From an uncultured Thermococci archaeon (GTDB lineage: Archaea; Methanobacteriota_B; Thermococci; Methanofastidiosales; B48-G16): a stretch of DNA of 64,000 nt. The stretch covers positions 32,001 through 96,000 of the forward strand of contig CAZQQT010000006.1 in the NCBI GenBank assembly GCA_964595645.1, written 5' to 3'. The notes beneath the pieces are model-generated. The model was not told the origin of the DNA, did no database searches, and saw only the letters and a program-made list of their open reading frames with translations. Made by a program: the position numbers and the translations under genes. How positions within the stretch are numbered: position 1 is the first letter of the stretch; every line of letters begins with the position of its first letter. Positions 2,529 through 27,966 of this stretch are shown one piece after another.

Positions 2529-3680
2529 ATGAGTAGGGGGATTAAAAAAAGAGAAATAAAAAACAGGATCAGTAAAGTTAGAAAAATAATGGAAAAAGAA
2601 GGTATGAATGCGCTTATTGTAATCGGCAGATCATTTTACGACAGAGTAGGAAATTTGGCATATCTATCAAACCATATCCCCGCATTTCCAGCCTCTACAT
2701 TCAGTGGCACCGTGAAAGGCCTCGGACATGGGGTGTTGCTTCTTCCTTTGGATGATGAACCTGTGTTACTGGTAGATGGTCCTGACTACAGAGAAGACTT
2801 GGTAGCGATAGATGACGTAAGAATAGGACTTGATATGCCATCGGCACTTAAAGAGATCCTCGAAGAGAAAGAGCTGACAGAAGCTACTATTGGCATCGTG
2901 GGATCGGACATCATGCCGCTCACATTTTATTGGGATATTTCTTCCAAAATGCCTAAAATACAATTTGAAAATGCGGATGACATCGTAAATTCTTTAAGAG
3001 CTGTGAAAAGCAAAGAAGAAATTAAATTATTAAAAAAAGCAGCAGAAATAGCAGATTTAGGGCTAAAAGCTGCTTTAAATGAAATAAAAGAAGGAAAAAA
3101 GGAGTCAGAGATTTGTGCAACGGGAATAAAAGCTAGTATCGAAGCTGGAGCAGATTTTGTTCGTTATTTAAGAGTACATTCTGGAAAATGGTCCACAATG
3201 ACATCCAGATGGCCTCAAGCTACCAAAAAAAAGATAAAAACAGGGGAAATTATCAATTTGGATTTAATTGGTGCCTATAGAGGATACCAATTTGACGTGA
3301 ACAGAAGTACAATTTTGGGAAAACCAAGTAAAAAACAATATGATCTTCTGGAGGCAGGGCTAAAAGCTACCCGTTTTGCTGTAAAAATGGCAAAACCGGG
3401 GATAAAAGTGAGTGAAATAGTAGAAAAAACATTAGAATTTGCTGATGAAATGGGATATAAAGAGTATATGTCTGGATTTATGGGACACGGAATAGGGTTA
3501 GAGACAGTTGAAGATCCCTACATCTTGGAGGGTGTGAGTGGCGAATTGAGTGAGAACATGGTGGTGAATATTGAGCCTGGAATCACGGTTCCAGAATTTG
3601 CAGGAGTACGAATAGAGCAGGAAACGATAGTGAAGCAAAATCCTGAGGTTATTGTAGGAATTGATGATAAATTATGGTAA
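2529..3680 (+). CDS. M24 family (Xaa-Pro peptidase-like) metallohydrolase
   Basis: Creatinase-like N domain; LRAVKSKEEI, D..D, GHGIGLE, EPG and GVRIE ligands. Confidence 0.85.
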   Translation: MSRGIKKREIKNRISKVRKIMEKEGMNALIVIGRSFYDRVGNLAYLSNHIPAFPASTFSGTVKGLGHGVLLLPLDDEPVLLVDGPDYREDLVAIDDVRIGLDMPSALKEILEEKELTEATIGIVGSDIMPLTFYWDISSKMPKIQFENADDIVNSLRAVKSKEEIKLLKKAAEIADLGLKAALNEIKEGKKESEICATGIKASIEAGADFVRYLRVHSGKWSTMTSRWPQATKKKIKTGEIINLDLIGAYRGYQFDVNRSTILGKPSKKQYDLLEAGLKATRFAVKMAKPGIKVSEIVEKTLEFADEMGYKEYMSGFMGHGIGLETVEDPYILEGVSGELSENMVVNIEPGITVPEFAGVRIEQETIVKQNPEVIVGIDDKLW

Positions 3681-5399
3681 TTGGAGGGAAATATTATGGA
3701 AAATAATATGAAAACAGACGTTCTCGTAATTGGCTCCGGAGGTGCGGGAGCTAGAGCTGCAATCGAAGCTGCTTTAAATGGTGCTGACGTGGTTATTGCC
3801 ACTAAGGGAAATTTGGCAAAAAGTGGAATCACTCCATTGGCAGAATGGTCCTTTGAAGCGCCCTTGGGCCATGCGGACCCACAAGATAGTGCTGAAATTC
3901 ACTTTGAGGACACTGTCAGAGAAGGAAGATTTCTTTCAGATCAGAATCTAGTCGAAGCGCTAGTAAATGACGCTGTAGAGAGAGTCCATGATCTTGAGAA
4001 GTTTGGAGTCCGGTTCAAAAAAGACAACGGGAAGTTCGTCCAAACAAAGATACCGGGTCAGTCCCACCCTCGATCGGTAATGATTATTAATGGAGGATTG
4101 GGGATGATGATGGGCCTCAAAAAAGAGATGAAAAAACACGAACAAATCCGCCCTTTAGAAGACACTATCATTACAAAAATTCTTACTGAGAAAAAAAGAG
4201 TTTCTGGAGCAACGTTTTTGAATTTGCGAACAGGAGAGTTCGGCCATATTCAATGTAACGCCATTGTAATCGCTACCGGAGGACATCAGGAACTGTGGCC
4301 GGTAACAGATACTCCTCCAGAGTCTGTGGGTGATGGATTTGTCCTTGCGTACTATGCTGGAGCAGAAATGGTGGACATGGAAATGCTTCTCTTCTACCCT
4401 GTGGTAGCAGTCTATCCAGAGCATATAAGAGGAACTATAATACCATATGAATGTTGTATTGAACCTTCATATGCAAGTGGTAAGTTGATAAATGGAACAG
4501 GAGAGGAATTTTTGCCTGAAGGAAGCCCTCCTGTGAGAGACATCCTAATACGGAAGATGTTTGACGAAATAAATGAAGGAAGGGGAACAGAACATGATGG
4601 TATCTATCTCGATCTCGCTAAATCCCCCAAATCAAAGAAAGAGATAACCGGATATCTGGAAGATATGATCCCCTCAACATTTAAACATTTGCTGGATCTA
4701 GACGTCGATATCCGAGAAGAACCGATAGAAATTGCCCCTGCAGCACATTATGCATTGGGAGGAATAAAAATTAATGAGAAGGGGGAAACGAATATAACAG
4801 GACTTTATGCTGCTGGGGAATGTGCCGGAAATGTCCAGGGCGCAAACAGGTTATCGGGAAATGCTTTAACTGAAACACAGGTATTTGGCACCAGAGCAGG
4901 AAAAAACGCTGCCATTTACTCACAAAAAAAAGGACATCTCACCGCTGAAGACGACAAGGTAGCAAACGAAAAGAAGAGAATTATGGCATATCTAGAAGAA
5001 AAAGAAAACGGATCGAGGCCTCTCCATCTTAAAGAGAAGATCAAAAAGATAATGTGGAAATACGTAGGGCCAAAAAGAGAGGAAGGGGGGCTGAAGAGAG
5101 CGGTGAAAGAACTTTCAAGGCTAAGAGAAAACGATCTCGCTAAAATTTATGCGCCAAACATAAACACCTACAATTATGAATGGATGGAGGCAATTGAAGC
5201 CGATTCTATGGTAACTGTTGCTGAAATTGTAAGTGCTGCCGCACTTTTGAGAGAAGAAAGTAGGGGGCACCATTACAGAGAAGATTTTCCTGAACAGGAT
5301 GATGAAAAATGGCTTCAACACACCATGGTGAAGCTTGATAACGGAAAAATGGTTGTGGATACTGCCCCTGTAATCATGAACAAATTAACGCCGGGGTGA
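3681..5399 (+). CDS. Fumarate reductase/SdhA-family flavoprotein (non-covalent FAD, divergent active site)
   Basis: IGSGGAG, ATGG, AHYALGG, GANRLSGNAL, REESRGHHYREDFP. Confidence 0.85.
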   Translation: MEGNIMENNMKTDVLVIGSGGAGARAAIEAALNGADVVIATKGNLAKSGITPLAEWSFEAPLGHADPQDSAEIHFEDTVREGRFLSDQNLVEALVNDAVERVHDLEKFGVRFKKDNGKFVQTKIPGQSHPRSVMIINGGLGMMMGLKKEMKKHEQIRPLEDTIITKILTEKKRVSGATFLNLRTGEFGHIQCNAIVIATGGHQELWPVTDTPPESVGDGFVLAYYAGAEMVDMEMLLFYPVVAVYPEHIRGTIIPYECCIEPSYASGKLINGTGEEFLPEGSPPVRDILIRKMFDEINEGRGTEHDGIYLDLAKSPKSKKEITGYLEDMIPSTFKHLLDLDVDIREEPIEIAPAAHYALGGIKINEKGETNITGLYAAGECAGNVQGANRLSGNALTETQVFGTRAGKNAAIYSQKKGHLTAEDDKVANEKKRIMAYLEEKENGSRPLHLKEKIKKIMWKYVGPKREEGGLKRAVKELSRLRENDLAKIYAPNINTYNYEWMEAIEADSMVTVAEIVSAAALLREESRGHHYREDFPEQDDEKWLQHTMVKLDNGKMVVDTAPVIMNKLTPG

Positions 5400-5403
5400 G
5401 CGT

Positions 5404-5727
5404 ATGAAAGAAAATACTGTACTCCTAAGAATTTACAGGTCCAATACAAACGGATTCGAAAAGTACGAGGTCCCTGCTAAAGGTTCTATTACGTTACAGC
5501 GTGCCATAAAATATGTATATGAGAATTTGGATAGGACACTCGCTTTTAGGAATTATTCCTGTTATAAAGGAGTGTGTAGCAACTGTATGGTAAACCTCAA
5601 TGGGAAAAATGTCAGATCATGTAGTGTTTTGTTACAACCTGGGGAGGAAGCTGTGGTAGAACCTGCGAAGGGATTCCCCGTGATCAGAGACCTCGTTGTA
5701 GATTTCAATAGACCTCGTGAGGAATGA
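5404..5727 (+). CDS. Short SdhB/FrdB-like [2Fe-2S] protein (N-terminal domain only)
   Basis: SCYKGVCSNC...RSC...FPVIRDLVVD; no 4Fe-4S/3Fe-4S domain. Confidence 0.8.
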   Translation: MKENTVLLRIYRSNTNGFEKYEVPAKGSITLQRAIKYVYENLDRTLAFRNYSCYKGVCSNCMVNLNGKNVRSCSVLLQPGEEAVVEPAKGFPVIRDLVVDFNRPREE

Positions 5728-7361
5728 GTATGTCAGAAATCGATAAGGACTATTTACCGCCACAAGATGCATTGCCTGAGAAAATATATACACTGCCTGA
5801 GATACGATACTCCGAAAATCTAAATGTGGGAAGAGAGTTGCTTGATAAAACTACTGAAAAAAAAGGCGATAAAACTGCAATTTATTATAAAGATAAAGAA
5901 ATCACGTATTTGGAACTTCAGAAAGATGTAAACAGACTGGCAAATGCCTTGAGCGATCTAGGGATCGAAGAAAATGATAGAATGATGCTGAGGACCCCTA
6001 ATATTCCAGAGTACCTTGTGAGTAACCTCGCGTGTTGGAAGATGCAAGCCATACCTGTGTTAGTTAACCCAATGCTGAGGAAGGAGGAGATATCGTATCG
6101 GGCCAACGACTCAGAGGCAAAGGCAATCATCGTTGATGCAGAAAGTTTGAATGATGTTGAAAAGGCTAAAAACGAACTTGACACGATCGAACACATAATA
6201 GTCATAGATTACGAAAAAGAGGAATATATCTCCTTTAATAAGCTGATGGAAGGAAAATCTTCCAATTTCGAAGCGTATGATTCCCATAAAGATGATATCG
6301 CTAGATTAATATACACATCAGGTACCACAGGGAAACCGAAGGGAGTGATAAGTACCCATGCTGACCTCCTCTCCTCTTGTGGAACACATGGAAAACACGT
6401 ACTGAAACTACATGAGGAGGACGTGATAGGAGGACATCCCTCCGTTACTTTTTCCTACGGCGCTATCAATTTTTGCTTATATCCGTGGTATTTTGGAGCT
6501 AGTTTATCACTCGTTGATACATTCAGCCCTGAAAAAATGTACGAAACAATAGAACAACATGGGATAACCGTACTGTGTTGTATACCCACCGCATACAAAA
6601 TGATGCTGAGTATAGAAGATGCCGAAAAAAAATACGATCTTAGGTCTCTACGGATATGCGAAAGTGCAGGTGAATGGCTCCCCAACACCACATATAAAGA
6701 GTGGAAAAAGAGATTCGGAGTAGAAATTTTAGACAGTTTAGGTTCTTCTGAGCTCATATATTTCCTTTCCACCTATGAAAATGTACCTCCTGATAAGATA
6801 GGATCGACGGGCACTATCGTCCCAGGATACAATGCGAAAATCGTAGATGAAGGATTCAATGAAGTTCCACGAGGCACGGTGGGTAGATTGATCATAAAAG
6901 GACCTGTCGGGAATCAGTACTGGAAAAAACCAGAAAAACAAAGGGAAAGTACATGGAAAGGATGGAGTTTGGCCGGCTTACTCTACGTAGAAGACGAAGA
7001 TGGGTACTTTTGGTACAAGGGGAGAGATGACACGATGATCGTCAGTGCAGGATACAAAATTCCAGGAGGAGAGGTTGAAAATGCGCTGAACTCACATCCC
7101 GCTGTATTGGAATCGGCAATAGTCCCCTCACCACATGAGCTTAGAGGGAGTATCGTGAAGGCGTATATCGTTCTCAATCAAGGATATGAGCCATCAAACT
7201 CATTGAAAAAAGAACTACAGGATTTCGTAAAGCAAAAGATTGAGCCGTATAAGTATCCCAGAGAAATAGAATTTGTTGAAAAAGGAAAAATGCCTAAAAC
7301 CTCAACGGGAAAAATTCAACGATTTAAATTAAAAGAAAAAGAGAAGGAAAGAAAGACGTAA
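5724..7361 (+). CDS. Acyl-CoA synthetase (benzoate/2-aminobenzoate-CoA ligase-like)
   Basis: YTSGTTGKPKG, GSSE, GRDD, PYKYPREIEF, KTSTGKIQR. Confidence 0.85.
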   Translation: MSMSEIDKDYLPPQDALPEKIYTLPEIRYSENLNVGRELLDKTTEKKGDKTAIYYKDKEITYLELQKDVNRLANALSDLGIEENDRMMLRTPNIPEYLVSNLACWKMQAIPVLVNPMLRKEEISYRANDSEAKAIIVDAESLNDVEKAKNELDTIEHIIVIDYEKEEYISFNKLMEGKSSNFEAYDSHKDDIARLIYTSGTTGKPKGVISTHADLLSSCGTHGKHVLKLHEEDVIGGHPSVTFSYGAINFCLYPWYFGASLSLVDTFSPEKMYETIEQHGITVLCCIPTAYKMMLSIEDAEKKYDLRSLRICESAGEWLPNTTYKEWKKRFGVEILDSLGSSELIYFLSTYENVPPDKIGSTGTIVPGYNAKIVDEGFNEVPRGTVGRLIIKGPVGNQYWKKPEKQRESTWKGWSLAGLLYVEDEDGYFWYKGRDDTMIVSAGYKIPGGEVENALNSHPAVLESAIVPSPHELRGSIVKAYIVLNQGYEPSNSLKKELQDFVKQKIEPYKYPREIEFVEKGKMPKTSTGKIQRFKLKEKEKERKT

Positions 7362-7386: not shown

Positions 7387-7419
7387 CCGAGGGGTTACCT
7401 CCTTCCCCTCGGGCTTTTT
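7387..7419. terminator. Hairpin plus T-tract between convergent operons
   Basis: CCGAGGGG-10nt-CCCCTCGG followed by GCTTTTT. Confidence 0.6.
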
Positions 7420-7466: not shown

Positions 7467-8417
7467 TTATATGTTCAGCACTCCATTTTTCATTATCTCT
7501 TCACCATCGATAAAAACAGATGGCCTTTTAATAATGCAATCAAGATGAATATCTACCTCTATACTCCCTCCAAAACTAGAATTTTTTCCAAGGGCGATAT
7601 GGATGGTGCCTAAAACTTTTTCATCTTCAAGAGGATTTCCTGAAATTATTGCCGCATCATTGGTACCGATGCCAAATTCACCTACCATTTTTGCGCCTTC
7701 CCCATGAGCACTAATACACTTGTTTAATTGTTCCGCTTCACTCTCTCCTTCAATATGAAAAACAGATCCCTCCTCTATCTCAACAGTTATTTCATCCTTT
7801 ACTTTGCCAATACTAGTAATAGAACCATCTACAACAGCCTTTCCATTGATAGAATCTTCTAAAGGAGCTATGAAAGCTTCTCCAGCTGGTAAGTTTCCTA
7901 TAGATCCTTTCTTAGTCAAAATACCAAAATCTGCAATAGATTTTCTTCCTTTTATAGAAAAAGATAAATTTGTACCTTTAGATGAACTAATTTTAATATG
8001 ATTACTTTCATTAAGGATTTGAGCGATTTTTTGGCTCCTATTCCTTACCTTGCTGTAATCAGCATTCATCGTTCTAATTAATATATCTTCATTAATGCCC
8101 GGCATCGTTGCCACTCTTGTACCACTCGTATAGGCCTTCTTTACAGCTTCTGAATGTGTTAAAGAATGTGTCGTTGGACAGACTGCAACATCAGTCTTCA
8201 AGAGCGCAGAGGTTACTAGCGGAGGAGGTTCTCCATCAGTCATTTGAAACGTTGATATCTGAAGAAGAGTAGTATCAGTACTTATTGGAAGAGCAGCTGC
8301 AAACAGAGATTGACCGATAGTCGTTGTTTTTTCATCGCAAACAACAAGAAGATCTTCTTCGGATTGAAATCCCATACATTGTGACAAAACTTTAGATGCT
8401 GCATCCTTTAATTTCAC
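7467..8417 (-). CDS. M29-like (thermophilic leucyl) aminopeptidase
   Basis: NLPAGEAFIAP, GEFGIGTN, EDEKVLGTIHIALG, HLD. Confidence 0.85.
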   Translation of the reverse strand: MKLKDAASKVLSQCMGFQSEEDLLVVCDEKTTTIGQSLFAAALPISTDTTLLQISTFQMTDGEPPPLVTSALLKTDVAVCPTTHSLTHSEAVKKAYTSGTRVATMPGINEDILIRTMNADYSKVRNRSQKIAQILNESNHIKISSSKGTNLSFSIKGRKSIADFGILTKKGSIGNLPAGEAFIAPLEDSINGKAVVDGSITSIGKVKDEITVEIEEGSVFHIEGESEAEQLNKCISAHGEGAKMVGEFGIGTNDAAIISGNPLEDEKVLGTIHIALGKNSSFGGSIEVDIHLDCIIKRPSVFIDGEEIMKNGVLNI

Positions 8418-9493
8418 TTAATCACCTCCAATTGCTTAATTTTATTGTAATCTACCTCTATTCCGGGACCATTAAATTCTAAAATTGGTGATTTTTTTAA
8501 TTTCATTAAATTTTTCTTATAGAAAAAGGGACTATCAAGGTCAATATAATCGAAAATTGGAAAACTAGAAGCTATTTGTGCTGAAAATGAAATGCCTATA
8601 GAAGATTCTCCCATACATCCCATCATAAGCTCCAAGTTTGAGAGTTCTGCAATTGAAATGATATCGAGCGTCTCGAAAACACCGGATTTCATTAACTTTA
8701 TGGTGATTCCATCTACCGCATCTCTCTCACAAAGCCTCATTGCATCATTGGGGGTAAAAACAGACTCATCGGCAAAAACTGGTGCTCCAATATTGTCTCG
8801 TACAAATTTCATCCCCTCTATATCCTCTCTCAAAACTGGCTGTTCAAAAATCTCAATTTCAATATCCAGATTTTTTAGAGCTTCTACAAACTGAACTGCT
8901 TCTTTTGGCGAAAATCCTTGGTTTGCATCGATTCTTATAGAAGACTCACCAACTGCATCTCTCACAGAACTCACTCTTTCGAGATCTGTTTCAAAATCTT
9001 TCCCTACTTTGATCTTAAATATCCTAAATCCGTCTGCAGCTGCATTTTTTGCAATTTGAGCAGCCTTCTCGGAAGGAACAATAGGTATTGTTAAATCGGT
9101 TTCTATCTCTCTCTTAGTAGATCCGAGGTACTCATATATAGAAACTCCTAAAAATTTGCAATAACCGTCGAGGAGTGCCATTTCAATTGCCGCTCGGGCA
9201 CTTCGTTGATAATATATAACTTTGGAGATCTTTCTAGAAAACCCCCTAATATTTTGGATTTCTTTACCGATAATCTGATCTCTAACAGTTTCAATAGCTT
9301 CAATGACGGTGTTTTGACTTTCGCTTGTAACAAAAGAGGATGGAGCTGCCTCACCAATTCCAATCACTCCACTCTCTAAAAAAATGGCAATGAGAACATT
9401 TTTAGCATTTTTTTGGACACCTAAAGATGTTTCAAAAGGATATTTGAGGGGAAGATTTAGTCTATGGACTTTCAAATCCCTAATTTTACTCAT
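8414..9493 (-). CDS. Dipeptide epimerase (L-Ala-D/L-Glu epimerase family, enolase superfamily)
   Basis: KIKVG, DANQG, EQP, ADES, IKLMKSG, DLD. Confidence 0.88.
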   Translation of the reverse strand: MSKIRDLKVHRLNLPLKYPFETSLGVQKNAKNVLIAIFLESGVIGIGEAAPSSFVTSESQNTVIEAIETVRDQIIGKEIQNIRGFSRKISKVIYYQRSARAAIEMALLDGYCKFLGVSIYEYLGSTKREIETDLTIPIVPSEKAAQIAKNAAADGFRIFKIKVGKDFETDLERVSSVRDAVGESSIRIDANQGFSPKEAVQFVEALKNLDIEIEIFEQPVLREDIEGMKFVRDNIGAPVFADESVFTPNDAMRLCERDAVDGITIKLMKSGVFETLDIISIAELSNLELMMGCMGESSIGISFSAQIASSFPIFDYIDLDSPFFYKKNLMKLKKSPILEFNGPGIEVDYNKIKQLEVIK

Positions 9494-10389
9494 TTGAAAG
9501 CTCCTCTCGTCAACCCTGAAATTATATATCTTTGGAAGAGCAACGCAATGATTAGTGGTGGAATAGACCCTACTACACCTGCTGTTATCATGAGATCGTG
9601 AGGATTCATTTGAAGAGTGGAGGAAAACATGGAAATGACAACAGGAAGCGTATGAGAACCTATATCGCTAGTAAGTATTAACGCGAAGAAAAACTCATTC
9701 CAGCAGGTTAAAAAAACGAAAATAGCAACGGCAGCAAATCCTGGCGCAGCAATTGGCAACAAAATCCTGAAAATCACGCCAACTGTTCCACACCCATCAA
9801 TTTTAGCTGATTCTTCCATTTCGTAAGGTACAGTCTGAAAGTAGGAATAGAGCATCCATATAGCGTAGGGCAACATAAACGCCGTATAAACGAAAATTAA
9901 TCCTATATGGGTATTTATGAGTGCTAAATTCCTCAATATCATGTAAAGAGGGATTATAACAATCATGGCTGGAATCATGTTAAAAAAAAGTGTCATGAGC
10001 ATTAACTGATTTTTAGCCCTCATTTTAAAACGGGAGTACGCATAGGCAGGGAAAGATGCAAGCAAGAGTGTTAAAAGAGTTGATCCCATGGCCACAATAA
10101 AACTATTAAGCGATGCCCGTGGCACCCAGTACGCATAATCTGGCACAGCACCTTCCAAAGCTGAACCCTTTTGGTAACGTTGTTGGTGAAGAAGGATTGT
10201 TCTATAATTTATAAACGGATCTTCAGGATGGGGTTCAATCCGCGGGGTTTCTGAATGTAGTTCATAGGACGTTTGAAAACTTTGAATAACCATCCACGCA
10301 TATGGCAATAAAAGAAATCCGAAAATAATTAACGCTACTACAATAATAGGCGATTTTTTTAGGTACTTTAGTTTATTTATCACTTTCAT
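9490..10389 (-). CDS. CUT1 ABC transporter permease (MalG-like)
   Basis: EESAKIDG EAA loop, WNEFFFA, ISGLTRGAFK. Confidence 0.9.
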   Translation of the reverse strand: MKVINKLKYLKKSPIIVVALIIFGFLLLPYAWMVIQSFQTSYELHSETPRIEPHPEDPFINYRTILLHQQRYQKGSALEGAVPDYAYWVPRASLNSFIVAMGSTLLTLLLASFPAYAYSRFKMRAKNQLMLMTLFFNMIPAMIVIIPLYMILRNLALINTHIGLIFVYTAFMLPYAIWMLYSYFQTVPYEMEESAKIDGCGTVGVIFRILLPIAAPGFAAVAIFVFLTCWNEFFFALILTSDIGSHTLPVVISMFSSTLQMNPHDLMITAGVVGSIPPLIIALLFQRYIISGLTRGAFK

Positions 10390-19541: not shown

Positions 19542-20636
19542 TTAAAAAAGAGCTTCTCCAGTTTTTTTAAATACATGTATTTTAGATGTATCTATAACTA
19601 AAGAAACAGTATCTCCCATATCTGCCGTTGTTCTTGGATCGACTTCAGCGGTAAATTCCTTTCCTCCTTTCTTGAGGTATAGAAACACATCTGAACCTAA
19701 CGTTTCTTTTACCTCAACGCTCGCTTCAATTCTTCCCTCTTCGGTCCTTGAAACGAACTCGGCATCGTGGATGTCTTCTGGTCTTATACCGAACGTTACA
19801 TCTTTGCTTATATAATCTTCCAAGGGATCTCTCAATCCAGAGGGTACTTTTATCTTGAAACATCCTGTATCTAGGTATAAAACATCATCTTTCTCGATAA
19901 TGGTAGCATCAAAGAAATTCATTGAAGGTGACCCGATGAATCCTGCCACAAATTCGTTTTCTGGATGGTCATATAACTGCTGAGGTGTATCTATCTGTTG
20001 AATCTCTCCTCCTTTTAACACGACTATTCTCTCGCCCATTGTCATGGCTTCTGCTTGATCATGGGTCACGTATATACTAGTAGTCTTTAGTTTTTGATGA
20101 AGTCTTATCAGTTCAGTTCTAGTCTGAATTCGCAATTTCGCATCGAGATTACTTAATGGTTCATCAAACAGGAAGACTTCAGGATACCTCACAATTGATC
20201 TCCCTAAAGCCACTCTCTGTCTCTGTCCTCCGGATAGTTCTTTCGGTTTTCTCTCTAATAAGTCTTCTATTTCCAAAAGAGCTGCTGTTTCGTGAACTCT
20301 TTCGTCTATTTCTTCCTTTGGAAATTTTTTAAGCCTGAGAGAAAAGCTCATATTTTCATAAACATTCATATGCGGATATAGCGCGTAATTCTGAAACACC
20401 ATTGCAATGTCTCTATCTTTAGGAGGTAACCCATTCACTAGTTTATCTCCGATATACATTTCCCCCTCATCTACGTTTTCTAATCCTGCTAAGCATCGGA
20501 GGGTCGTAGACTTCCCACAGCCGGAAGGACCAATTAGAACAAGAAACTCGCCTTCTTTTGCTTCAAAGCTAATATCCTCTACTGCCACTACATCTCCGAA
20601 TTTTTTTGATACAGAGTCAAATTCTACCCTTGCCAT
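19542..20636 (-). CDS. MalK/MsmX-type ABC ATPase
   Basis: GPSGCGKST, LSGGQRQR, LFDEPLSNLDAK, TOBE domain. Confidence 0.93.
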   Translation of the reverse strand: MARVEFDSVSKKFGDVVAVEDISFEAKEGEFLVLIGPSGCGKSTTLRCLAGLENVDEGEMYIGDKLVNGLPPKDRDIAMVFQNYALYPHMNVYENMSFSLRLKKFPKEEIDERVHETAALLEIEDLLERKPKELSGGQRQRVALGRSIVRYPEVFLFDEPLSNLDAKLRIQTRTELIRLHQKLKTTSIYVTHDQAEAMTMGERIVVLKGGEIQQIDTPQQLYDHPENEFVAGFIGSPSMNFFDATIIEKDDVLYLDTGCFKIKVPSGLRDPLEDYISKDVTFGIRPEDIHDAEFVSRTEEGRIEASVEVKETLGSDVFLYLKKGGKEFTAEVDPRTTADMGDTVSLVIDTSKIHVFKKTGEALF

Positions 20637-20733
20637 ATATCTCACTTTCTCCACTTCGTTTATGAAGTCAACAACCTATAAATTTGTTACAAACTTGATA
20701 TTCCTTAAACACATTTTCTATATAAATCTTTTT

Positions 20734-20750
20734 CCAATATAGTTGCTGGG
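20734..20750. promoter_or_regulatory. Degenerate operator site 5, between divergent promoters
   Basis: CCAATATAGTTGCTGGG with AAAAA-TTATA on one side and AAAAAGATTTATATA on the other strand. Confidence 0.45.
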
Positions 20751-20815
20751 AAAAATTATAAAACTTTTTGCAGATACAACACCTATGTAGGATAAAGAGT
20801 TAAAGAGGTAATTAG

Positions 20816-22165
20816 ATGAATAATTTACCCAACATAATTACTGAACCCCCAGGTCCTCGTACGAAAGAAGCGTTGGAAAAAGAGAAAGAACCGTTCTCAA
20901 CCCAATGGCCCAAAAATAGATATCTGCCCTTTGTCATCTCTGAAGGAAAAGGAGCAATTGTAAAAGATCCAGATGGAAACTCATATCTAGATTATATGGG
21001 ATGTGATTATAATCTCGGTCACTGTCACCCACATATCGTAAAAGCAATAAAAGATCAAGCCGAAGAACTTGTACTTTTTTTGAATATTACTGGTATATGG
21101 GAAAATATGAGGGAATTCGCAAATAAAATAAGAGAAATGTCCCCTGGAGAGTTAAAAGAGGGAAAAATTGTTTATTCAGCTGGTGGGAGCGGACTCGTTG
21201 CAGTTTCAACGATGTGCGCACGATATTATACTAGAAAATCCGTTATATTAACCTATGTCGGAGATTTCCATGGTACGACACCAGGAGTGATGCCCTTTAC
21301 TACACGAAGTTCCGAATCCAAAAAACATCTTTCACCAGTAATAGGAGAAACGGCATATCTCCCGTATCCTAACTGCTATAGGTGCCCTTTCGACAAATCT
21401 TATCCTGAATGTAATCTTTTTTGTGCTGAAAGTCTAAACAATACGTTAGAAACTGTCGTACACCCTGATGATGTAGCAGCACTTCTTTTTGAACCCATTC
21501 AATCTCCCTCGGGAATCATTGTCCCGCCCGAAGGCTATTGGGAGAGAATCGAGAAGATATGTAAAGAACATAGTATTGTAACGATATGCGATGAAGTGTT
21601 GACGGGTATGGGACGCACAGGTACCATGTTTGGGATTGAACACTGGGATATAGTACCTGATATTGTATGCATGGGGAAATCCTTTGCAATGGGCGTTCCT
21701 GCTGCCGCTATGATCGCGAAAAAAGAAATTGTGAATAACTGGAACTATGGATTCCCAACAATCGATAGTTTTGGTGGAAATCCTTTGGCATGTGCAGCAG
21801 GGCTGGCAGGATTGGAAGTGATCGAAAAGGAGAATCTTATGGAAAATACCATCAGAATGGGTGAGTATTTCCTGAAGGGACTGCAAGATATGTCTGAGGA
21901 GCATGAGCTAATAGGAGATGTAAGGGGAAAAGGTCTACTAATAGGTGTTGAGTTAGTGAAAGATCGTAAAACAAAAGAGCCTGCAACAGAAGAAACGAAG
22001 AAAATTATGCAGGAATGTTTTAAGAGAGGCCTAATAGTAGCGCCCTACGGCAGGTATGCTCAGGTGATAAGAATTTTTCCTCCATTAAATATAACTAAAG
22101 AACAGATCGATAAAAGTTTAGAGATAATGGATGAGGCTTTTAGAGTAGTAGAATGTAAAAGGTGA
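20816..22165 (+). CDS. Class III PLP aminotransferase, paralog 2
   Basis: DPDGNSYLDY, FHGTT, CDEVL, PDIVCMGK, SFGGNP; clearly similar to 15680-17044. Confidence 0.88.
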   Translation: MNNLPNIITEPPGPRTKEALEKEKEPFSTQWPKNRYLPFVISEGKGAIVKDPDGNSYLDYMGCDYNLGHCHPHIVKAIKDQAEELVLFLNITGIWENMREFANKIREMSPGELKEGKIVYSAGGSGLVAVSTMCARYYTRKSVILTYVGDFHGTTPGVMPFTTRSSESKKHLSPVIGETAYLPYPNCYRCPFDKSYPECNLFCAESLNNTLETVVHPDDVAALLFEPIQSPSGIIVPPEGYWERIEKICKEHSIVTICDEVLTGMGRTGTMFGIEHWDIVPDIVCMGKSFAMGVPAAAMIAKKEIVNNWNYGFPTIDSFGGNPLACAAGLAGLEVIEKENLMENTIRMGEYFLKGLQDMSEEHELIGDVRGKGLLIGVELVKDRKTKEPATEETKKIMQECFKRGLIVAPYGRYAQVIRIFPPLNITKEQIDKSLEIMDEAFRVVECKR

Positions 22166-22171: not shown

Positions 22172-23545
22172 ATGACCCTATTTTCTGAAAAAATAGCTGA
22201 GATAGTCGATGAAATAACCTATAAAAAAATTCCAAACGATATTATAAAAAAAGCGAAATATTGTATCTTAGATTCGATTGCTTGTGGATTGGGAGCTTCC
22301 ACAATGAAAGAAGCTATTAAAATTTCTCATTTGATGGAAAAAATGGGCAGCACAGGGGGTGCTTCCATTTTCAATAGGAAGAAGAAGGTGCATCCCGCAC
22401 TGGCATCCTACACAAATTGCTATATGTGCAACCTCTTGGATTTTGATGATACCTACACATCACAATCTGTTGCAGGGCACCCAGGAGCGACAATAGTCCC
22501 CTCCTCAATGGCAGTTGGAGAAATGTTGAATATTTCTGGAAAAGATCTGCTAGAAGCTGTTATCGCCGGATATGAATCCTCAATAAGAATTGCTCAGTAT
22601 TACGCACCTACAAGCGATAGATTTAAGATAGTGGCAGGTATAAATACATGGCAAGTATTCTCAACTGCAGCTTCCGTTGCAAAAACAATCAATCTAGAAA
22701 TAAACGAGATAGTTTCGGCTATTTGCATCGCAGGAATAGGAGCTCCTGTACCTTCTGTGAGAAAGGTGGGGTTAGAGGGTATTACTCAGATGAAAAACAA
22801 CTTTGGATTAGTGGGATTGAATGGTACAATCTCAGCACTACTCGCGTCAGAAGGAATTGACGGCAATAAAGAACTATTTGAAGGAATGAATGGATTTTGG
22901 GCAATGGCTGGAAGTGATCAGTTCAAAATGGAAATAATCCCACTATCATCAAAATGGTTTATAGAGGATGTATCTTTTAAACCATATCCATTCTGCAGAT
23001 GTACGCACGCTACACTTGATGCTCTCGAACAAATAATGACTGAAAATTCCATAGAATCGCAAAATATAAAGAAAATTGATGTGTATACATTCTATGATGC
23101 TGTTGCTCTTAATTTTATTCCTAAAAACTTAATTAAATCACAGCAATCTCTTCTCTTTGCGATTGCAAAGGAAATACTGAAACAGGAAGGAGAATATAAC
23201 TGGAATAGTATGGATGTCCTGAATGATGAAACTGTAAAGGATATAATAAATAAAATCAGAGTACATGAAACGGAAGAAGCAAATAAATTGTATAAAGAGG
23301 AGGGAATCGATTCCTCAAATGTAATTGTTACTTTAAAAGATGGGAAAACTTTGGAAAAAAAGGTCTTTGGTGCTAAAGGGTGCGCAGAACACCCGATGGA
23401 CGAAAAGGAGATCTTGGAAAAGGCTCACTGGCTTATATCGCAGATCCTTGATTCCACTAGAGTTGAGGAGATAGTTTCTTCGATAATGAAGTTAGAGAAG
23501 GTAGATGATGTTGAGAAAATAGCAAGAATTTACCGATCAGACTAA
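22172..23545 (+). CDS. MmgE/PrpD family protein
   Basis: LDFDDT, GHPG, FKPYPFCRCTH. Confidence 0.88.
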   Translation: MTLFSEKIAEIVDEITYKKIPNDIIKKAKYCILDSIACGLGASTMKEAIKISHLMEKMGSTGGASIFNRKKKVHPALASYTNCYMCNLLDFDDTYTSQSVAGHPGATIVPSSMAVGEMLNISGKDLLEAVIAGYESSIRIAQYYAPTSDRFKIVAGINTWQVFSTAASVAKTINLEINEIVSAICIAGIGAPVPSVRKVGLEGITQMKNNFGLVGLNGTISALLASEGIDGNKELFEGMNGFWAMAGSDQFKMEIIPLSSKWFIEDVSFKPYPFCRCTHATLDALEQIMTENSIESQNIKKIDVYTFYDAVALNFIPKNLIKSQQSLLFAIAKEILKQEGEYNWNSMDVLNDETVKDIINKIRVHETEEANKLYKEEGIDSSNVIVTLKDGKTLEKKVFGAKGCAEHPMDEKEILEKAHWLISQILDSTRVEEIVSSIMKLEKVDDVEKIARIYRSD

Positions 23546-24490
23546 CAACACAGCAGCCATCTCTCCTTTCTGAATAGGTGGTCCTGTGATGAGGAGTATT
23601 TTTCCCTCGGTGGATGAGCGTATTCTTTCTTGAATATTACCCCAGTAATCCTTCACTATAGCAATACTTTCATCTTTACCCACGGTATCCCCTACTTTTT
23701 TTAGGGGAAGAAGGAATCCGTTGTTGTGTGAGTTCAAAATTGAAAAATTATGGAATTTTTTAGATTTTTTGATCTCCGGAAGCTCTCCTGAGATCATATC
23801 CAAATAGACTAATACGTTACGTACTCCTCTATAAAGTTTTTCTACACACTGTTCATCCACAATACCCCGTCCTCCACATTCTGCCACAATAGAGGGGACT
23901 CCTACATTTGTCGCCTCCTCAGCAAGTGTTCCTTGGATGTCTCCATCTCCTTCGCTGGACATGACAGCACCGAGATCCATCAACGTTGCCATTTTTTCCA
24001 GTGTAGCGTCAGTACGGGTATCCCCAGTTTTTTTATAGCTCGCATACGCACAGAGATCCTCAATTAAATCCCCACAATGCAGATCAACAATGTACTGACA
24101 GCGGTCCGTCAAAAAATTGAATAGGGTAAAGGCTATTTTATCACTAATAGAACCTGTAACGTTACCGGGAAAAACTCTATTAAGATTCTTTTCATCGAGG
24201 GGGCAGGTATACACAGATCTGTTCTCAAAGGCGGGCACATTCACTAGAGGGAATACGATCAATGCCCCTTTTAGATCCTCAGGCGAAATCCTTTCGATAA
24301 GGGTAAATGCAGTACAGGTAGCATTGTATTCTGAACCGTGAATTCCTGCCGTGACGCCGACAGTGGGACCATCCTTTGAGCCTTTCAGAACAATAACTGG
24401 AATAGTAACTCCGTCCACCACAAGCTCAGACGTATATAGTGTACCGGCTTCAATATCTTCAATCTGAAGATCTAACTCTGACGAACCCAT
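23537..24490 (-). CDS. Succinylglutamate desuccinylase/aspartoacylase (M14) family
   Basis: GIHGSE, NLNRVFPG, DLHCG, ECGG. Confidence 0.88.
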   Translation of the reverse strand: MGSSELDLQIEDIEAGTLYTSELVVDGVTIPVIVLKGSKDGPTVGVTAGIHGSEYNATCTAFTLIERISPEDLKGALIVFPLVNVPAFENRSVYTCPLDEKNLNRVFPGNVTGSISDKIAFTLFNFLTDRCQYIVDLHCGDLIEDLCAYASYKKTGDTRTDATLEKMATLMDLGAVMSSEGDGDIQGTLAEEATNVGVPSIVAECGGRGIVDEQCVEKLYRGVRNVLVYLDMISGELPEIKKSKKFHNFSILNSHNNGFLLPLKKVGDTVGKDESIAIVKDYWGNIQERIRSSTEGKILLITGPPIQKGEMAAVLLV

Positions 24491-24499
24491 TTACATCCC

Positions 24500-25747
24500 T
24501 TATCTGTCCTGGTTGCAGAATTTTTCCTTGGTGCGCACCACTATCTCCTTGAACTCCTCCTCAGTCAGTAAGCCTTTCTTTTCCTCTCCAAGAACTTTAA
24601 CTTCCTCGAGTACTTTAGGAATGAGTTCATCGCTCATGTCGATATTGAGGTTATCCAACATGTGTCGTATCGATGCTTTCCCACTCTTTTTGCCTAAGAC
24701 TATCTCAACGCCGTCCCGATTCAACAGATCCCATGTGAAGGGGAAGAGAACGAGGGGTGTTACATCTTTCTCTCTCAATTTAAGCAGGATGTTGACTAAC
24801 AGCCCTGACTCTATGGTGAAGGCATTTTTACCAGTAATAGGCTTGGATACAGGAATTTCTACTCCTGAAAACTCTTCAACCATCGTTGAGAGTTCATAGA
24901 GTTTCTCATGCTTGATATCCAAATTTACATTGTAGAGGAGGTAAAGAGAGAGTGTTACTTCATCTAAGGGGGGCATTCCCGCCCCTTCTCCCATGCCATT
25001 AACAGTTGTATGGGCCATCTCGGCTCCACTGGCAAGTGCTGTTACAGTATTTGCCGTAGCCATCCCGAAGTTATTATGGAAATGAGATTCTATGGGAATT
25101 TTTATCCTTTTTTTTATCCAGTTGATGAAATGCATGGTAGAAATTGGAGTTAGAACACCAAAAGTATCTGCAAAACAGAGAGAATCGGGGTGAACTTCCG
25201 ACACCTTCTTGAGAATACGTTCCAGTAGCTTGGGCTCCGATCGTGTAGAATCTACGAAGAAAGAAGTGGCGTTAATTCCATGGTCCTTTGCGTACTGAAG
25301 CGTTGAAGTCGACTTTTCAATGGCTTCGTCTATTGTCCAGCGATACCCTTGTTCTATCAGATCTTTACTGGTAGGAAACTCACAGAGAACACCATCAACA
25401 TTACAATCAAGAGCATGATCTACATCACTCGTAATCGACCGTGAAAAACATACGATCTCTGCATCCAATCCCAAATTCCCAATCTTTTTGGCAGTTTCTT
25501 TATCCTGTTTTGACACAAGTGGTAGCCCCAGATCGATTCTATCAACACCAATCTCATCGAGCATTTGAACAATTTTAATTCTTTCTTCGCCTCGCAAAAC
25601 GACGCCTGGCTGTTGTTCACCATCTCTCAGTGTCTCATCATTGATTTTGATATCTTCTATTTTTATTTTGTTTTTGACTTCGGGAACAAAATTATAGGGA
25701 GACGTCCACCAGCATTCTCCTTTCCACGGTTTGCTTTCTTGATTCAT
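24500..25747 (-). CDS. DRE-TIM metallolyase (homocitrate/isopropylmalate synthase-like)
   Basis: DETLRDGEQ, HFHNNFG, NGMGEGAG, LGKKSG; AGGTGA RBS before ATG at 25747. Confidence 0.85.
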   Translation of the reverse strand: MNQESKPWKGECWWTSPYNFVPEVKNKIKIEDIKINDETLRDGEQQPGVVLRGEERIKIVQMLDEIGVDRIDLGLPLVSKQDKETAKKIGNLGLDAEIVCFSRSITSDVDHALDCNVDGVLCEFPTSKDLIEQGYRWTIDEAIEKSTSTLQYAKDHGINATSFFVDSTRSEPKLLERILKKVSEVHPDSLCFADTFGVLTPISTMHFINWIKKRIKIPIESHFHNNFGMATANTVTALASGAEMAHTTVNGMGEGAGMPPLDEVTLSLYLLYNVNLDIKHEKLYELSTMVEEFSGVEIPVSKPITGKNAFTIESGLLVNILLKLREKDVTPLVLFPFTWDLLNRDGVEIVLGKKSGKASIRHMLDNLNIDMSDELIPKVLEEVKVLGEEKKGLLTEEEFKEIVVRTKEKFCNQDR

Positions 25748-25852: not shown

Positions 25853-26788
25853 TTACTTCACACAATCGTTTTGTAGCACGACCCTCTGATTCGTCGCATC
25901 CAGTGTTACTTTACAACCTATTGGAATTGTTGTGTTTGGGGTATTATGTCCAAAATCGTCACATTTCAACACAGGAAACTCATATTCTTTTACCGCATTT
26001 ATTACAATATCTTCGTAAGATATGTTGCTCTCATGATTGTAGTACCCGATCCACATCCCTTTGATTTGCTTAAACACACCCATCTGTCGCAGACGATGTA
26101 GTTCGCATTCCACATGGGCAGGTGTACTTTTTTTGCCAAAACTCTCTAAAAACAGTATTGTATCTTTAAAATGAGGTAGGTACTGCGTTCCCGCCAGCTT
26201 GTTCATACAGTTTAGGTTGCCTCCTACCAACACGCCTTCAGCAACTCCTTCTTTGATGCATTTCCATTTTGAATTATGAGGTATTTCACCGATAGTTCCT
26301 TCAACTAATCTCTGTTTGAATTCGTGTACATCATACTCGGTATAGTCCCCCCCAAATCCCCAGATCACGTCATTTCCATGAAAGGTGATTAACCCTGTCT
26401 CTTTATAGATCGCATTTAGTAGTACGGTGATATCACTAATTCCAAGGAATATTTTCGGGTTATTTTTTATAGCATCAAAATTCAACAGAGGTAGCACCGT
26501 GTTTGCATTTGATCCTCCCTGGCTACAGATGATCGCGTTCACACCGGCGTCTTCAAACATTGAATTGATATCGTCTGCTTTCTCTCGAGGGGTCGCTGAA
26601 TATCCTAATGTGTTTTTCAATGCATTGCGTGCCACTTTGACCTCAAATCCACATGTGTTGAGGAATTCAACGCCTTTCTCGAACCGTGTTCTCACGTCTT
26701 CAGTTACAGGTGCAGAAGGAGACACAATCCCCACGGTGTCACCCCTCTGGAGTTTTTTGGGAATCATTACTATACATGATACCGGCAT
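25853..26788 (-). CDS. S66 peptidase (LD-carboxypeptidase/MccF family)
   Basis: GIVSPSA, QGG, GISDIT, GGNL, FLE, FGH. Confidence 0.88.
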   Translation of the reverse strand: MPVSCIVMIPKKLQRGDTVGIVSPSAPVTEDVRTRFEKGVEFLNTCGFEVKVARNALKNTLGYSATPREKADDINSMFEDAGVNAIICSQGGSNANTVLPLLNFDAIKNNPKIFLGISDITVLLNAIYKETGLITFHGNDVIWGFGGDYTEYDVHEFKQRLVEGTIGEIPHNSKWKCIKEGVAEGVLVGGNLNCMNKLAGTQYLPHFKDTILFLESFGKKSTPAHVECELHRLRQMGVFKQIKGMWIGYYNHESNISYEDIVINAVKEYEFPVLKCDDFGHNTPNTTIPIGCKVTLDATNQRVVLQNDCVK

Positions 26789-26967
26789 TTATTTAAGCTT
26801 TTCGTCTCTTATTTTGTTTAAACGCTAATTTATGTACTTGTTTGTATAAAAACTTTCAAAAAGTACTTAAATATACTTATATAGTGATTAAATGGGGGAA
26901 AGATATAAGAACCTGAAAGAGTTCAAACTTCATGTTAGTACTCTAAGAAATATACCCAGAAAGTACT

Positions 26968-26977
26968 GGCATATGCC
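26968..26977 (+). promoter_or_regulatory. GCATATGC operator site 7
   Basis: GGCATATGCC upstream of TTTTAAAA and cysK. Confidence 0.65.
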
Positions 26978-27015
26978 CTCACAATTATTTTAAAAAAGAA
27001 AGAGAAATAAGTGAT

Positions 27016-27966
27016 ATGCTTACTGATCCTTTGGAAGACATGCTCGAGCTGATAGGCAACACACCAATGCTCAAATTAAAACGAATATCACAGAAGATAT
27101 CTGCTGAAATCTGGGCAAAACTGGAATATTTCAATCCAAGTGGGAGTATAAAAGACAGAATTGCACTAAAAATGCTTGAGGAAGCAGAAAAACGAAATGA
27201 AATCTCCAAAGGAGGAATAGTGATAGAACCGACATCAGGAAACACTGGTGTGGCATTAGCACTGGTATGTACATTGAAAGGGTACAAAATGATTGCGGTC
27301 ATGCCGGAAGCGGTAAGTGAAGAGCGAAGAAAAATTGTGAAACTTCTTGGTGGAGAAGTAGAACTCGTTAAATGCCTCAACAAGGAGAAAGGTGTAACGA
27401 AGGAGGATATGGAAGCCGTCGTGGCACGTGCTGAAGAGCTCACTGAACAGTATTCGAACTCCTTCATGCCCGATCAGTTTACGAATGAGGATAACCCAAA
27501 GGCACATGCTGAGACCACTGCAGCTGAAATCTTGAACCAAACGGGGAAAAAACTTAACGCCTTTGTGGCCGCATGTGGGACAGGAGGGACCTTCACTGGA
27601 ATTGCACGAAAACTCAAAGAAAGATGTCTAGATGTCAAGAATGTGGTGGTAGAACCTAGTGGTTCTGCTGTCCTTTCAGGGTGCGAACCGTGTCATCATA
27701 AGATTCAAGGGATTGGAGAGGGATTCATCCCAGATGTTATGGATACGGAATTAGTCGATGAGATAATTCAGGTCAGCGGTAAAGACGCAATTGCCACCGC
27801 TCTTCAACTTTGGAAAAAAGAAGGTGTGACAGCAGGCATCTCAAGCGGTGCCAATGTGTTTGCTTCTCTCGCGATAGGAAAGGACATGAGCAAAGGAGAT
27901 ATTATCGTGACGCTGATACCGGATCACGGATTGAGATATCTCTCAGTAAAAGAATTTAGTCTATAA
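27016..27966 (+). CDS. cysK: Cysteine synthase family PLP enzyme
   Basis: KLEYFNPSGSIKDR, PTSGNTG, GTGGT, HKIQGIG. Confidence 0.88.
   Translation: MLTDPLEDMLELIGNTPMLKLKRISQKISAEIWAKLEYFNPSGSIKDRIALKMLEEAEKRNEISKGGIVIEPTSGNTGVALALVCTLKGYKMIAVMPEAVSEERRKIVKLLGGEVELVKCLNKEKGVTKEDMEAVVARAEELTEQYSNSFMPDQFTNEDNPKAHAETTAAEILNQTGKKLNAFVAACGTGGTFTGIARKLKERCLDVKNVVVEPSGSAVLSGCEPCHHKIQGIGEGFIPDVMDTELVDEIIQVSGKDAIATALQLWKKEGVTAGISSGANVFASLAIGKDMSKGDIIVTLIPDHGLRYLSVKEFSL

Follow-up and report, generated by a model that had tools for sequence, protein, structure and literature searches.

What does the gene island described here import and break down? The 26-kb island belongs to an uncultured Thermococci archaeon (Methanofastidiosales; B48-G16; assembly GCA_964595645.1) and lies on contig CAZQQT010000006.1, of which positions 32,001-96,000 of the forward strand were analysed as one window of 64,000 nucleotides (nt); the stretch studied spans positions 2529-27966 of this window, and all gene coordinates are window coordinates. 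It encodes an ATP-binding cassette (ABC) importer of the CUT1 type, a dipeptide epimerase and a variety of catabolic enzymes, in which an initial annotation had seen a co-regulated pathway, with the scavenging of muropeptides or D-amino-acid peptides as its best guess. Dead bacterial matter, with its many D-amino acids, is thought to feed uncultured archaea of sediments and digesters, by pathways that are poorly defined. We class the locus as a catabolic island that its substrate induces and whose enzymes come from known families; the murein guess has been weakened. The explanation that we favour, though tentatively, is an accessory regulon with one DNA-binding regulator that would import and dismantle a small peptide or N-acyl amino-acid conjugate with a D-configured centre, and such conjugates are the kind of compound released from dead bacteria.

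Gene content and shared control of the island

Gene families were assigned with Pfam and NCBIfam, and both scans placed every family named in the initial annotation where it had been seen. Scores written as "x of y bits" compare a match with the curated NCBIfam cut-off. The gene content is as follows:

1629-2363, + strand, HTH_10 DNA-binding protein (Pfam HTH_10, 60 bits, residues 184-235)
2529-3680, + strand, M24 hydrolase with Creatinase_N domain, PepQ-like (Pfam 142 bits)
3681-5399, + strand, FrdA/TfrA/NadB-like flavoprotein (FAD_binding_2 and Succ_DH_flav_C)
5404-5727, + strand, 2Fe-2S protein of 107 amino acids (aa), only the 2Fe-2S domain of SdhB/TfrB (Fer2_3, 76 bits)
5724-7361, + strand, AMP-forming acyl-CoA ligase (AMP-binding, 281 bits)
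7387-7419, G+C-rich hairpin with a T-run between two convergent operons (read directly from the sequence)
7467-8417, − strand, short NicX/M29-like metalloenzyme, 316 aa (Pfam M29, 76 bits, partial coverage)
8414-9493, − strand, dipeptide epimerase of the mandelate racemase/muconate-lactonizing enzyme (MR/MLE) type, MLE subgroup, TM0006-like (PDB 2zad, 234 bits)
9490-10389 and 10398-11285, − strand, two ABC permeases (BPD_transp_1)
11297-12727, − strand, CUT1-type solute-binding lipoprotein with a Thr/Pro linker (SBP_bac_1, 97 bits)
12798-13484, − strand, isochorismatase-family cysteine amidase (Pfam 114 bits)
13622-14557, − strand, aldo-keto reductase (AKR; Pfam 256 bits)
14703-15671, + strand, GFO/IDH/MocA dehydrogenase, hereafter GFO (Pfam 85 bits)
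15680-17044, + strand, class III aminotransferase-fold enzyme AT3a (Pfam 314 bits)
17016-18227, + strand, class I/II aminotransferase AT1/2, aspartate aminotransferase (AspAT)-like (Pfam 238 bits)
19542-20654, − strand, MalK/UgpC-type ABC ATPase with TOBE domain (UgpC subfamily, 461 of 432 bits)
20816-22165, + strand, class III aminotransferase-fold enzyme AT3b (PDB matches)
22172-23545, + strand, MmgE/PrpD-family protein (Pfam 168 and 88 bits)
23537-24490, − strand, AstE/AspA-family zinc deacylase (Pfam 106 bits)
24500-25747, − strand, HMGL-like Claisen-type synthase of the isopropylmalate, homocitrate or citramalate synthase type (Pfam 198 bits, with HCS_D2)
25853-26788, − strand, S66 peptidase, peripheral to the core (Pfam 129 and 97 bits)
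27016-27966, + strand, CysK/CysM-type pyridoxal phosphate (PLP) enzyme (TIGR01136, 368 of 344 bits)

The M24, flavoprotein, 2Fe-2S and CoA-ligase genes are separated by 0, 4 and −4 nt, and the genes for the binding protein, the two permeases, the epimerase and the NicX-like protein by 11, 8, −4 and −4 nt, with the hairpin and T-run at 7387-7419 closing the latter unit and facing the convergent CoA-ligase gene. Co-transcription of importer, epimerase and NicX-like gene is supported by the two 4-nt start/stop overlaps, the 8- and 11-nt gaps and the terminal hairpin with its T-run; the "M29" aminopeptidase that the initial annotation included in this unit is a short NicX/M29-like protein. The importer has all parts of the CUT1 type, namely the SBP_bac_1 protein, the pair of BPD_transp_1 permeases and the MalK-type ATPase with its TOBE domain, and the ATPase gene stands 7 kb from the others as a separate transcription unit. 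The GFO, AT3a and AT1/2 genes are joined by gaps of 8 and −29 nt, 6 nt lie between AT3b and PrpD and 9 nt between HMGL and AstE, and the ABC ATPase, isochorismatase, AKR, S66 and CysK genes form single-gene units. The start of the HMGL gene is more likely at 25747 than at 25822, as judged from the promoter position and from a syntenic metagenomic contig (L027).

Reading of the intergenic regions revealed a shared operator, which consists of the palindrome nGCATATGCn followed directly by GGRAAA and, a few bases on, by an A/T-rich TATA-like box. It occurs in good form at six promoters and in weaker form at two, at least six and up to eight promoters in total:

2469-2486, + strand, operator of the M24 operon, GCGCATATGCCGGAAAAA followed by a TATA-like box
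12771-12788, − strand, operator of the importer operon, AGGCATATGCTGGGAAAA with TATA box
13517-13534, − strand, operator of the isochorismatase gene, AGGCATATGCTGGAAAAT with TATA box
14617-14640, single palindrome serving the divergent AKR and GFO promoters, with operator, GGRA(A/C)A and TATA box on both strands
20734-20755, degenerate operator between the ATPase and AT3b genes, with a small indel compared with the canonical copy of L027
25794-25811, − strand, operator of the HMGL-AstE unit, CAGCATATGCTGGGGCAA with TATA box
26968-26977, perfect palindrome GGCATATGCC about 40 nt before the CysK start, followed by a TATA-like run on the + strand

The palindrome on the CysK side stands about 180 nt from the S66 start, and no operator copy was found near the promoter of S66 itself. 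When the window was searched with the pattern GCATATGCNGGRAAA, allowing up to 2 mismatches, and compared with 100 shuffles, 9 matches were obtained against 0.67 expected and none of the 100 shuffles reached 9; two of the nine fall within permease genes. Across the whole genome (1.97 Mb), the 13-base operator core has five exact matches, four of them in the island itself, where they span less than 12 kb. The fifth (contig C7, around position 100100) was rejected as an operator, being G+C-rich coding sequence with no TATA box. A scoring matrix was built from five sites with the HMGL site left out of training, and that site was recovered as its best non-training match having a TATA box. Neither the exact-core nor the matrix search of the whole genome found the operator at a promoter outside the island. 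The contig L027 keeps the canonical operator at two orthologous promoters, those of the AT3b/ATPase pair and of HMGL, and this conservation argues that the operator is functional; the N-terminus of the ABC ATPase occupies the same divergent position there, as read from the sequence. The indel in the copy at 20734-20755 may weaken control of that promoter pair in the host genome.

The operator lies just upstream of the region formed by the TATA box and the transcription factor B recognition element (BRE), a position which fits a regulator contacting the basal machinery. The HTH_10 gene at 1629-2363 is the only DNA-binding gene in the island, and the N-terminal 180 aa of its product match no family; this protein is possibly the regulator acting on the operator, an identity that we infer from its place in the island. 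The shared operator and the recurrence of core genes on unrelated contigs support the island as one co-regulated unit with a conserved core, and the co-regulation claimed initially is borne out.

The core that recurs comprises the CUT1 importer, GFO, a class III enzyme, a class I aminotransferase, AstE, the epimerase, the NicX-like protein, the HMGL-like and PrpD-like proteins and an acyl-CoA synthetase (ACS); S66 and M24 are not part of it. L027 shares with the window AT3b (81 % identity), PrpD (74 %), AstE (68 %) and HMGL (79 %), and another gene replaces S66 upstream of HMGL. The closest homologue of the epimerase, of 53-54 % identity, lies on a 27.8-kb contig of 55 % G+C (L018, extended form L026), where two paralogous modules of importer, AT3, AT1/2 and GFO stand in tandem on one strand (L026:1-20936, Logan SRR14802574). 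Module A holds HMGL, solute-binding protein, permease, permease, AT3, AT1/2, GFO, ACS-alpha and ACS-beta, and module B holds AstE, GFO, AT3, AT1/2, solute-binding protein, permease, permease, epimerase, NicX-like and a glyoxalase-like gene. AT3b is 71 % identical in L026, and by identity the window combines the importer, AT3a, AT1/2 and GFO of type A with the AT3b, AstE, epimerase and NicX-like protein of type B. The presence of two modules, only the second with AstE, epimerase and NicX-like protein, suggests two related substrates, one free and one conjugated.

Elsewhere AstE, NicX-like protein, ACS-alpha, ACS-beta and HMGL occur together (L024), AstE adjoins a class III enzyme (a further contig, lc-Qggfm), and in L025 an AstE homologue and a class I aminotransferase gene belong to an ABC operon of the peptide type. 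On L035 the neighbours of a class III enzyme are an Asp-dehydrogenase-like gene, a pair of PrpD genes, and genes for an M19 dipeptidase and an ABC importer of the peptide type. An NCBIfam scan of the L026 and L024 paralogues gave no equivalog. The contigs bearing the core differ in G+C content (33 %, 36 % and 55 %) and in regulation.

The host genome of 1.97 Mb is in 14 contigs and 99.96 % complete. It matched the archaeal small-subunit rRNA model at 1569 bits, a sign weak alone as the same model also matched all bacterial control genomes; further archaeal signs are the HTH_10 and DUF5591 genes and promoters of BRE/TATA type. The GTDB phylum of the host counts 133 species, and 97 of these belong to a single family in a sister order. 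Because the G+C content of its 16S rRNA is only 55.5 %, the host is probably not a hyperthermophile. The G+C content of the island is 39.4 % against 43.2 % for the whole genome, and a tRNA gene borders it on one side. Within the host's own lineage the island is accessory. No orthologue of the binding protein was found among 40 related genomes, and AstE was not found in the five same-family genomes searched, which are 69-94 % complete. AT3b has in same-family genomes paralogues of 36-39 % identity only, and the epimerase has in the host's lineage relatives of 40-41 % identity only, in two genomes.

Predicted activities of the encoded proteins

Judged from its residues, the epimerase is of the true dipeptide-epimerase type and resembles TM0006. 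Its best matches in the PDB are TM0006 (2zad, 234 bits) and 1jpm (220 bits), and its catalytic set is intact and invariant, with K160/K162 (KxK), the second lysine K266 and the metal ligands D189/E217/D242, while D318-L-D320 aligns with the FDFD motif of YkfB (D321/D323). In YkfB, Arg24 binds the side-chain carboxylate of Glu and D321/D323 hold the free alpha-ammonium of the substrate (10.1101/2022.05.01.490185); TM0006 of Thermotoga maritima acts on L-Ala-D/L-Phe, -Tyr and -His (PMC5808125). The YkfB Arg24 position is taken by Gly25, a Gly invariant in that clade. Retention of the catalytic and metal-binding residues and of the ammonium-binding DxD motif makes it likely that the pathway passes through a dipeptide whose N-terminus is free and whose C-terminal residue can be epimerised. 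TM0006 shares with it the catalytic Lys pair, the metal ligands, the DxD motif and the lack of an Arg at the Glu-binding position, although the cut-off of the TM0006-based NCBIfam model is not reached (312 of 500 bits, NF041118), nor is that of the curated model NF011708 (97 of 343 bits), and the activity of the island enzyme is a prediction.

A reading of the epimerase as an N-acetyl-D-Glu racemase (DgcA/DgcN) was rejected: DgcA scored 141-150 of 400 bits, the island has no DUF1611 or acyltransferase gene, and an epimerase homologue of 47-49 % identity that stands beside a DUF1611 gene also keeps the DxD motif. Such a homologue is translationally coupled to the DUF1611 gene (distant DgcN-like, 196 of 480 bits) at L019:8949-11068 and L020:1848-3967, where the pair is inserted among the archaeal ribosomal-protein genes L1, L10 and L11.

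The S66 peptidase matched MccF-like chains of the PDB at 149-156 bits and LdcA at 47-72 bits, and reached 106 of 378 bits with the curated LdcA-type model PRK11253; its triad S118, E215 and H281 is present, as assigned by motif. The initial annotation had named three findings that would speak against murein, among them a preference of the epimerase for hydrophobic dipeptides and a clustering of S66 with MccF. Both were found at the level of sequence proxies, the former as the nearness to TM0006 and the Gly at the Arg24 position, the latter as the scores for MccF-like chains (156 bits) and LdcA (72 bits).

The NicX-like protein matches PF02073 at 76 bits against a 27-bit cut-off, covering only profile positions 183-351 of 406; with 316 aa as compared to about 410 aa for full-length M29, it is without the N-terminal part of M29 enzymes. 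A sequence search of the PDB favoured NicX (E 3.8e-9) over AmpS (E 1.6e-3). Its structural model (predicted local distance difference test 95.6) has template-modelling (TM) scores of 0.81-0.84 to NicX, the 2,5-dihydroxypyridine dioxygenase of Pseudomonas putida, at an identity of only 19 %, and of 0.64-0.70 to the M29 peptidases PepS, AmpS and AmpT, after which the crocagin enzymes CgnB and CgnE are the next fold neighbours. Residues E180, E247, H273, H291 and D293 (E-E-H-HxD) are invariant in 23 homologues and are candidate metal ligands, matched to the five of AmpS by their spacing only. A dioxygenase role of the NicX type fits the gene contexts of the family poorly: unlike NicX with its nicotinate genes, the family neighbours peptide transporters and racemases, and one homologue adjoins an OPT peptide transporter and two genes of the Asp/Glu-racemase family. 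At L021:4895-11524 a NicX-like gene of 47-48 % identity stands among OPT transporter, DUF1177, Asp/Glu racemase, DUF917-type, AroM and nitroreductase genes, another racemase-rich cluster.

The enzyme first seen as M14, and likened to MpaA, is instead of the AstE/AspA family. Its nearest solved structure is DoeB (82 bits), its sole NCBIfam match is DoeB as well (118 of 403 bits), and the Pfam scan gave no Peptidase_M14 match. H51, E54, H138 and E204 (HxxE...H...E) are invariant, with zinc and catalytic residues intact. The clade is a rare one: when 1.84 billion representatives, with clusters at 50 % identity, were searched exhaustively with HMMER, only one other cluster scored highly, at 381 bits, and the next reached 231 bits.

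Of the three aminotransferases reported earlier, the class I/II enzyme stands as AspAT-like, with no NCBIfam cut-off reached, whereas the two class III enzymes are nearest to archaeal PLP racemases and omega-transaminases. The best PDB matches of AT3a are the Ala/Ser racemase of Pyrococcus horikoshii (9wqz, 305 bits) and the omega-transaminase-type 7vno (294 bits), and those of AT3b are 9wqz (305 bits) and the broad-specificity racemase 9wrf (274 bits); for both the ranking runs from Ala/Ser racemase to Ile 2-epimerase, broad-specificity racemase and an omega-transaminase-type chain. The two are predicted to act as racemase or omega-transaminase. The D-amino-acid cluster of P. horikoshii, whose racemases are thus their nearest solved relatives (racemase BAR PH0138, transporter PH0137, regulator DARP; PMC13628549, PMC6047364), likewise combines a class III-fold PLP enzyme, a transporter and a local regulator in an archaeon. 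It has two regulated genes and a regulator of the FFRP type, whereas the island counts about twenty genes, its candidate regulator is an HTH_10 protein and its operator differs.

The GFO protein carries K100 and D172-x3-H176, the triad of inositol and sugar dehydrogenases, and its nearest solved chain is 3ezy, a T. maritima dehydrogenase (84 bits). The PrpD-like protein scored 70-88 bits with IRG1, cis-aconitate decarboxylase and IDS epimerase alike. M24 reached 163 of 630 bits with the NCBIfam model PepQ_Arch, and 74 of 613 and 66 of 575 bits with DoeA. The CoA ligase stands at 368.5 of 375 bits with the benzoate-CoA ligase family, the AKR is YdjG-like (169 of 550 bits), and the isochorismatase has D38 and C174 (RutB, 78 of 378 bits). 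The flavoprotein reached 491 of 718 bits with TfrA. At 3681-5727 on the + strand it is paired with the anchor-less 2Fe-2S protein under the operator of the M24/CoA-ligase unit, and the two might together form a soluble enzyme that dehydrogenates an amino or dicarboxylic acid. For HMGL, PrpD and the transaminases, lysine biosynthesis through alpha-aminoadipate was rejected, as the island is without LysW, X, Y and Z, homoaconitase and homoisocitrate dehydrogenase.

The binding protein is Trp-rich, found generic sugar-binder clusters only in a protein-atlas search, and gave one 23 %-identical Clostridiales match in the genome contig scan. Its residues 1-56 hold a lipobox-like LVLGC and a repeated TTTEAP linker. 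This N-terminus matches many other proteins of the host lineage at 50-77 % identity, which marks it as a shared export and anchor signal.

Candidate substrates and a proposed order of steps

Under our tentatively favoured explanation, a conjugate with a D-configured centre, we infer a substrate for every enzyme and an order of steps. The CUT1 system would import the compound. The NicX/M29-like enzyme and the epimerase, translationally coupled to the permease genes, would trim it and turn L-Xaa-D-Yaa into the L-L form, with M24 as a possible dipeptidase. The AstE/DoeB-like deacylase would then free an N-alpha-acylated amino acid or diamino acid with release of a short-chain acid, AT3a and AT3b would racemise or omega-transaminate the product, and AT1/2 and GFO would give 2-oxo or hydroxy acids. 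The released acid may be activated by the CoA ligase (by ADP-forming synthetases on other contigs) and processed by the HMGL-like and PrpD-like enzymes, while the FrdA-like flavoprotein may handle a dicarboxylate. In favour of this scheme are the motifs of the catalytic sites, a gene linkage that is conserved, and the neighbourhoods of related NicX-like, AstE and AT3/PrpD genes, which abound in peptide and racemase genes.

Several points weigh against it. The nearest solved chains of the binding protein are all sugar binders (at most 54 bits), and a plain peptide pathway would need neither such a protein nor the K/D/H triad of GFO. The modelled fold of the NicX-like protein is nearer a dioxygenase than a peptidase. 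Both class III enzymes fall below the racemase cut-offs (AT3a and AT3b, 309 and 344 of 800 bits for the Leu/Met racemase and 328 and 329 of 639 bits for the Ala/Ser racemase family). HMGL, PrpD, FrdA and AKR were placed in the scheme by chemical plausibility only. Module A of L026 carries importer, AT3, AT1/2 and GFO and lacks any hydrolase, which leaves room for a small molecule resembling an amino sugar as the imported core. The sugar-type binding protein, the GFO triad and this module together indicate a carbohydrate-like part of the substrate, and owing to them the conjugate explanation is held somewhat short of probable and an amino-sugar substrate is kept in view as a minor possibility.

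With murein as the food, stem peptides, glycan-linked or free, would be imported; S66 would remove the terminal D-Ala, the AstE-type enzyme would stand in for MpaA or an amidase, the epimerase would flip L-Ala-D-Glu, the isochorismatase would deamidate iso-Gln, and GFO, transaminases and AKR would handle the amino sugars. Murein is the only single substrate calling for both the sugar-type binding protein with GFO and the D-peptide enzymes, the top PDB match of both class III enzymes is an Ala/Ser racemase, and cleavage of an N-acyl linkage would in principle be within reach of an AstE-type amidase. S66 is, moreover, known to be paired with an epimerase in Bacillus subtilis ykfA-D and Escherichia coli ycjG, and murein recycling in these bacteria (ykfABCD; ldcA, mpaA, ycjG, pepD) likewise links an MLE-subgroup epimerase, S66, a zinc amidase and a dipeptidase to an importer (PMC5808125). 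The island differs in having no Arg24 equivalent in its TM0006-like epimerase, a peripheral S66 nearer to MccF, an AstE/AspA amidase without Peptidase_M14 match instead of MpaA or NlpC/P60, a sugar-type importer instead of Opp/Dpp, an archaeal host, and a core to which GFO, two class III enzymes, HMGL and PrpD are added. In addition, the promoter of S66 has no operator near it, none of L027, L026 and L024 carries S66, and the island holds no glycosidase. The genome was searched for the N-acetylmuramic acid (MurNAc)-L-Ala amidase, gamma-D-Glu-DAP peptidase and MurNAc etherase of a murein recycling system: Amidase_2, Amidase_3, NlpC/P60 and MurQ were absent above cut-off from the 99.96 % complete host genome, all with matches in control genomes; the MurQ search gave only a 36-bit SIS-like match. 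Enzymes that would free stem peptides from the glycan are thus missing. The Gly in place of Arg24, the MccF-like S66 and these absences make murein fragments an unlikely substrate of the island. A non-canonical archaeal feeding on cell-wall fragments or a similar glyco-peptide, combining sugar-type uptake, an AstE-type amidase in place of AmpD/MpaA, a TM0006-like epimerase and class III racemases acting on D-residues, and the island-specific operator, is given a similarly low probability; GFO and the class III transaminase would in that case perform a so far undescribed amine removal from an amino sugar.

The catabolism of an N-acetylated diamino acid or cyclic solute, in the manner of ectoine degradation (Doe) or of the arginine succinyltransferase (AST) route, would have M24 opening a ring, AstE deacylating, the class III enzyme transaminating the omega-amine and a dehydrogenase and the AspAT-like enzyme finishing, with released acetate activated and condensed by HMGL. 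DoeB being the nearest structure and sole NCBIfam match of AstE speaks for it, as do the operator at M24 and the occurrence of CoA ligase or ACS with HMGL, which fits use of a released acid. AstE adjoins a class III enzyme on three independent contigs (lc-Qggfm, L026, and L027 with the same four-gene block as the window), mirroring DoeB/DoeD and AstE/AstC, and because this pairing recurs an N-alpha-acylated diamino acid is a reasonable intermediate; M24 is moreover in the same regulon, as in the DoeA/DoeB/DoeD system. No equivalog cut-off is reached, however, and the ectoine alternative raised initially fails on DoeA (74 of 613 bits) and DoeB (118 of 403 bits); diaminobutyrate transaminase models lie far below the top matches, M24 is unlinked to the core on other contigs, no aldehyde dehydrogenase, semialdehyde dehydrogenase included, is present, the transporter is of another type, and such a route would leave the DxD dipeptide epimerase, the NicX-like enzyme and the sugar-type binding protein without a task. 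We regard such a pathway as doubtful. The amino-sugar possibility extends to a free amino sugar, an aminocyclitol or a glycated amine, with CUT1 uptake, class III deamination, carbonyl adjustment by GFO and AKR, removal of an N-acetyl group by AstE, and peptide enzymes serving the conjugated form. It agrees with the sugar-type, Trp-rich binding protein, the GFO triad and its T. maritima relative, and the hydrolase-free module A, and dicarbonyl sugars would suit AKR here and the glyoxalase-like gene of L026. Genes for a sugar kinase, glycosidase, deglycase or deaminase are missing from the island, however, and PrpD, HMGL and FrdA find no role; known GFO-transaminase pairs use DegT-type and not class III enzymes. 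Heat-driven glycation products, considered as a substrate, were downgraded, as the 16S rRNA of 55.5 % G+C speaks against a hyperthermophile. Quite improbable, lastly, is that the genes form unrelated scavenging operons that merely share a regulator, as in a regulon for nitrogen or amino acids in general; the chemically mixed enzymes, the palindrome at the biosynthetic-type CysK and the lack of linkage of S66 and M24 to the core elsewhere point that way, but the same core recurs at 33 %, 36 % and 55 % G+C with different regulation, and the operator is found at no promoter outside the island.

The island offers a clean test case: a dedicated operator defines its regulon, the conserved core is compact, the catalytic sites are intact and the enzyme subfamilies are rare in public data. 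The ligand of its binding protein would assign functions at once to the short M29/NicX-like family, the AstE clade, the two class III clades and the PrpD clade, and would also show whether archaeal sugar-type ABC importers carry peptide conjugates.

One further transporter gene lies downstream of the class I aminotransferase gene:

18316-19520, + strand, frameshifted major facilitator superfamily (MFS) transporter gene, a pseudogene (MFS_1 on the first fragment)

Several frameshifts and stops interrupt it and its reading frame switches repeatedly; this broken gene may be a decayed second uptake route of the same regulon.

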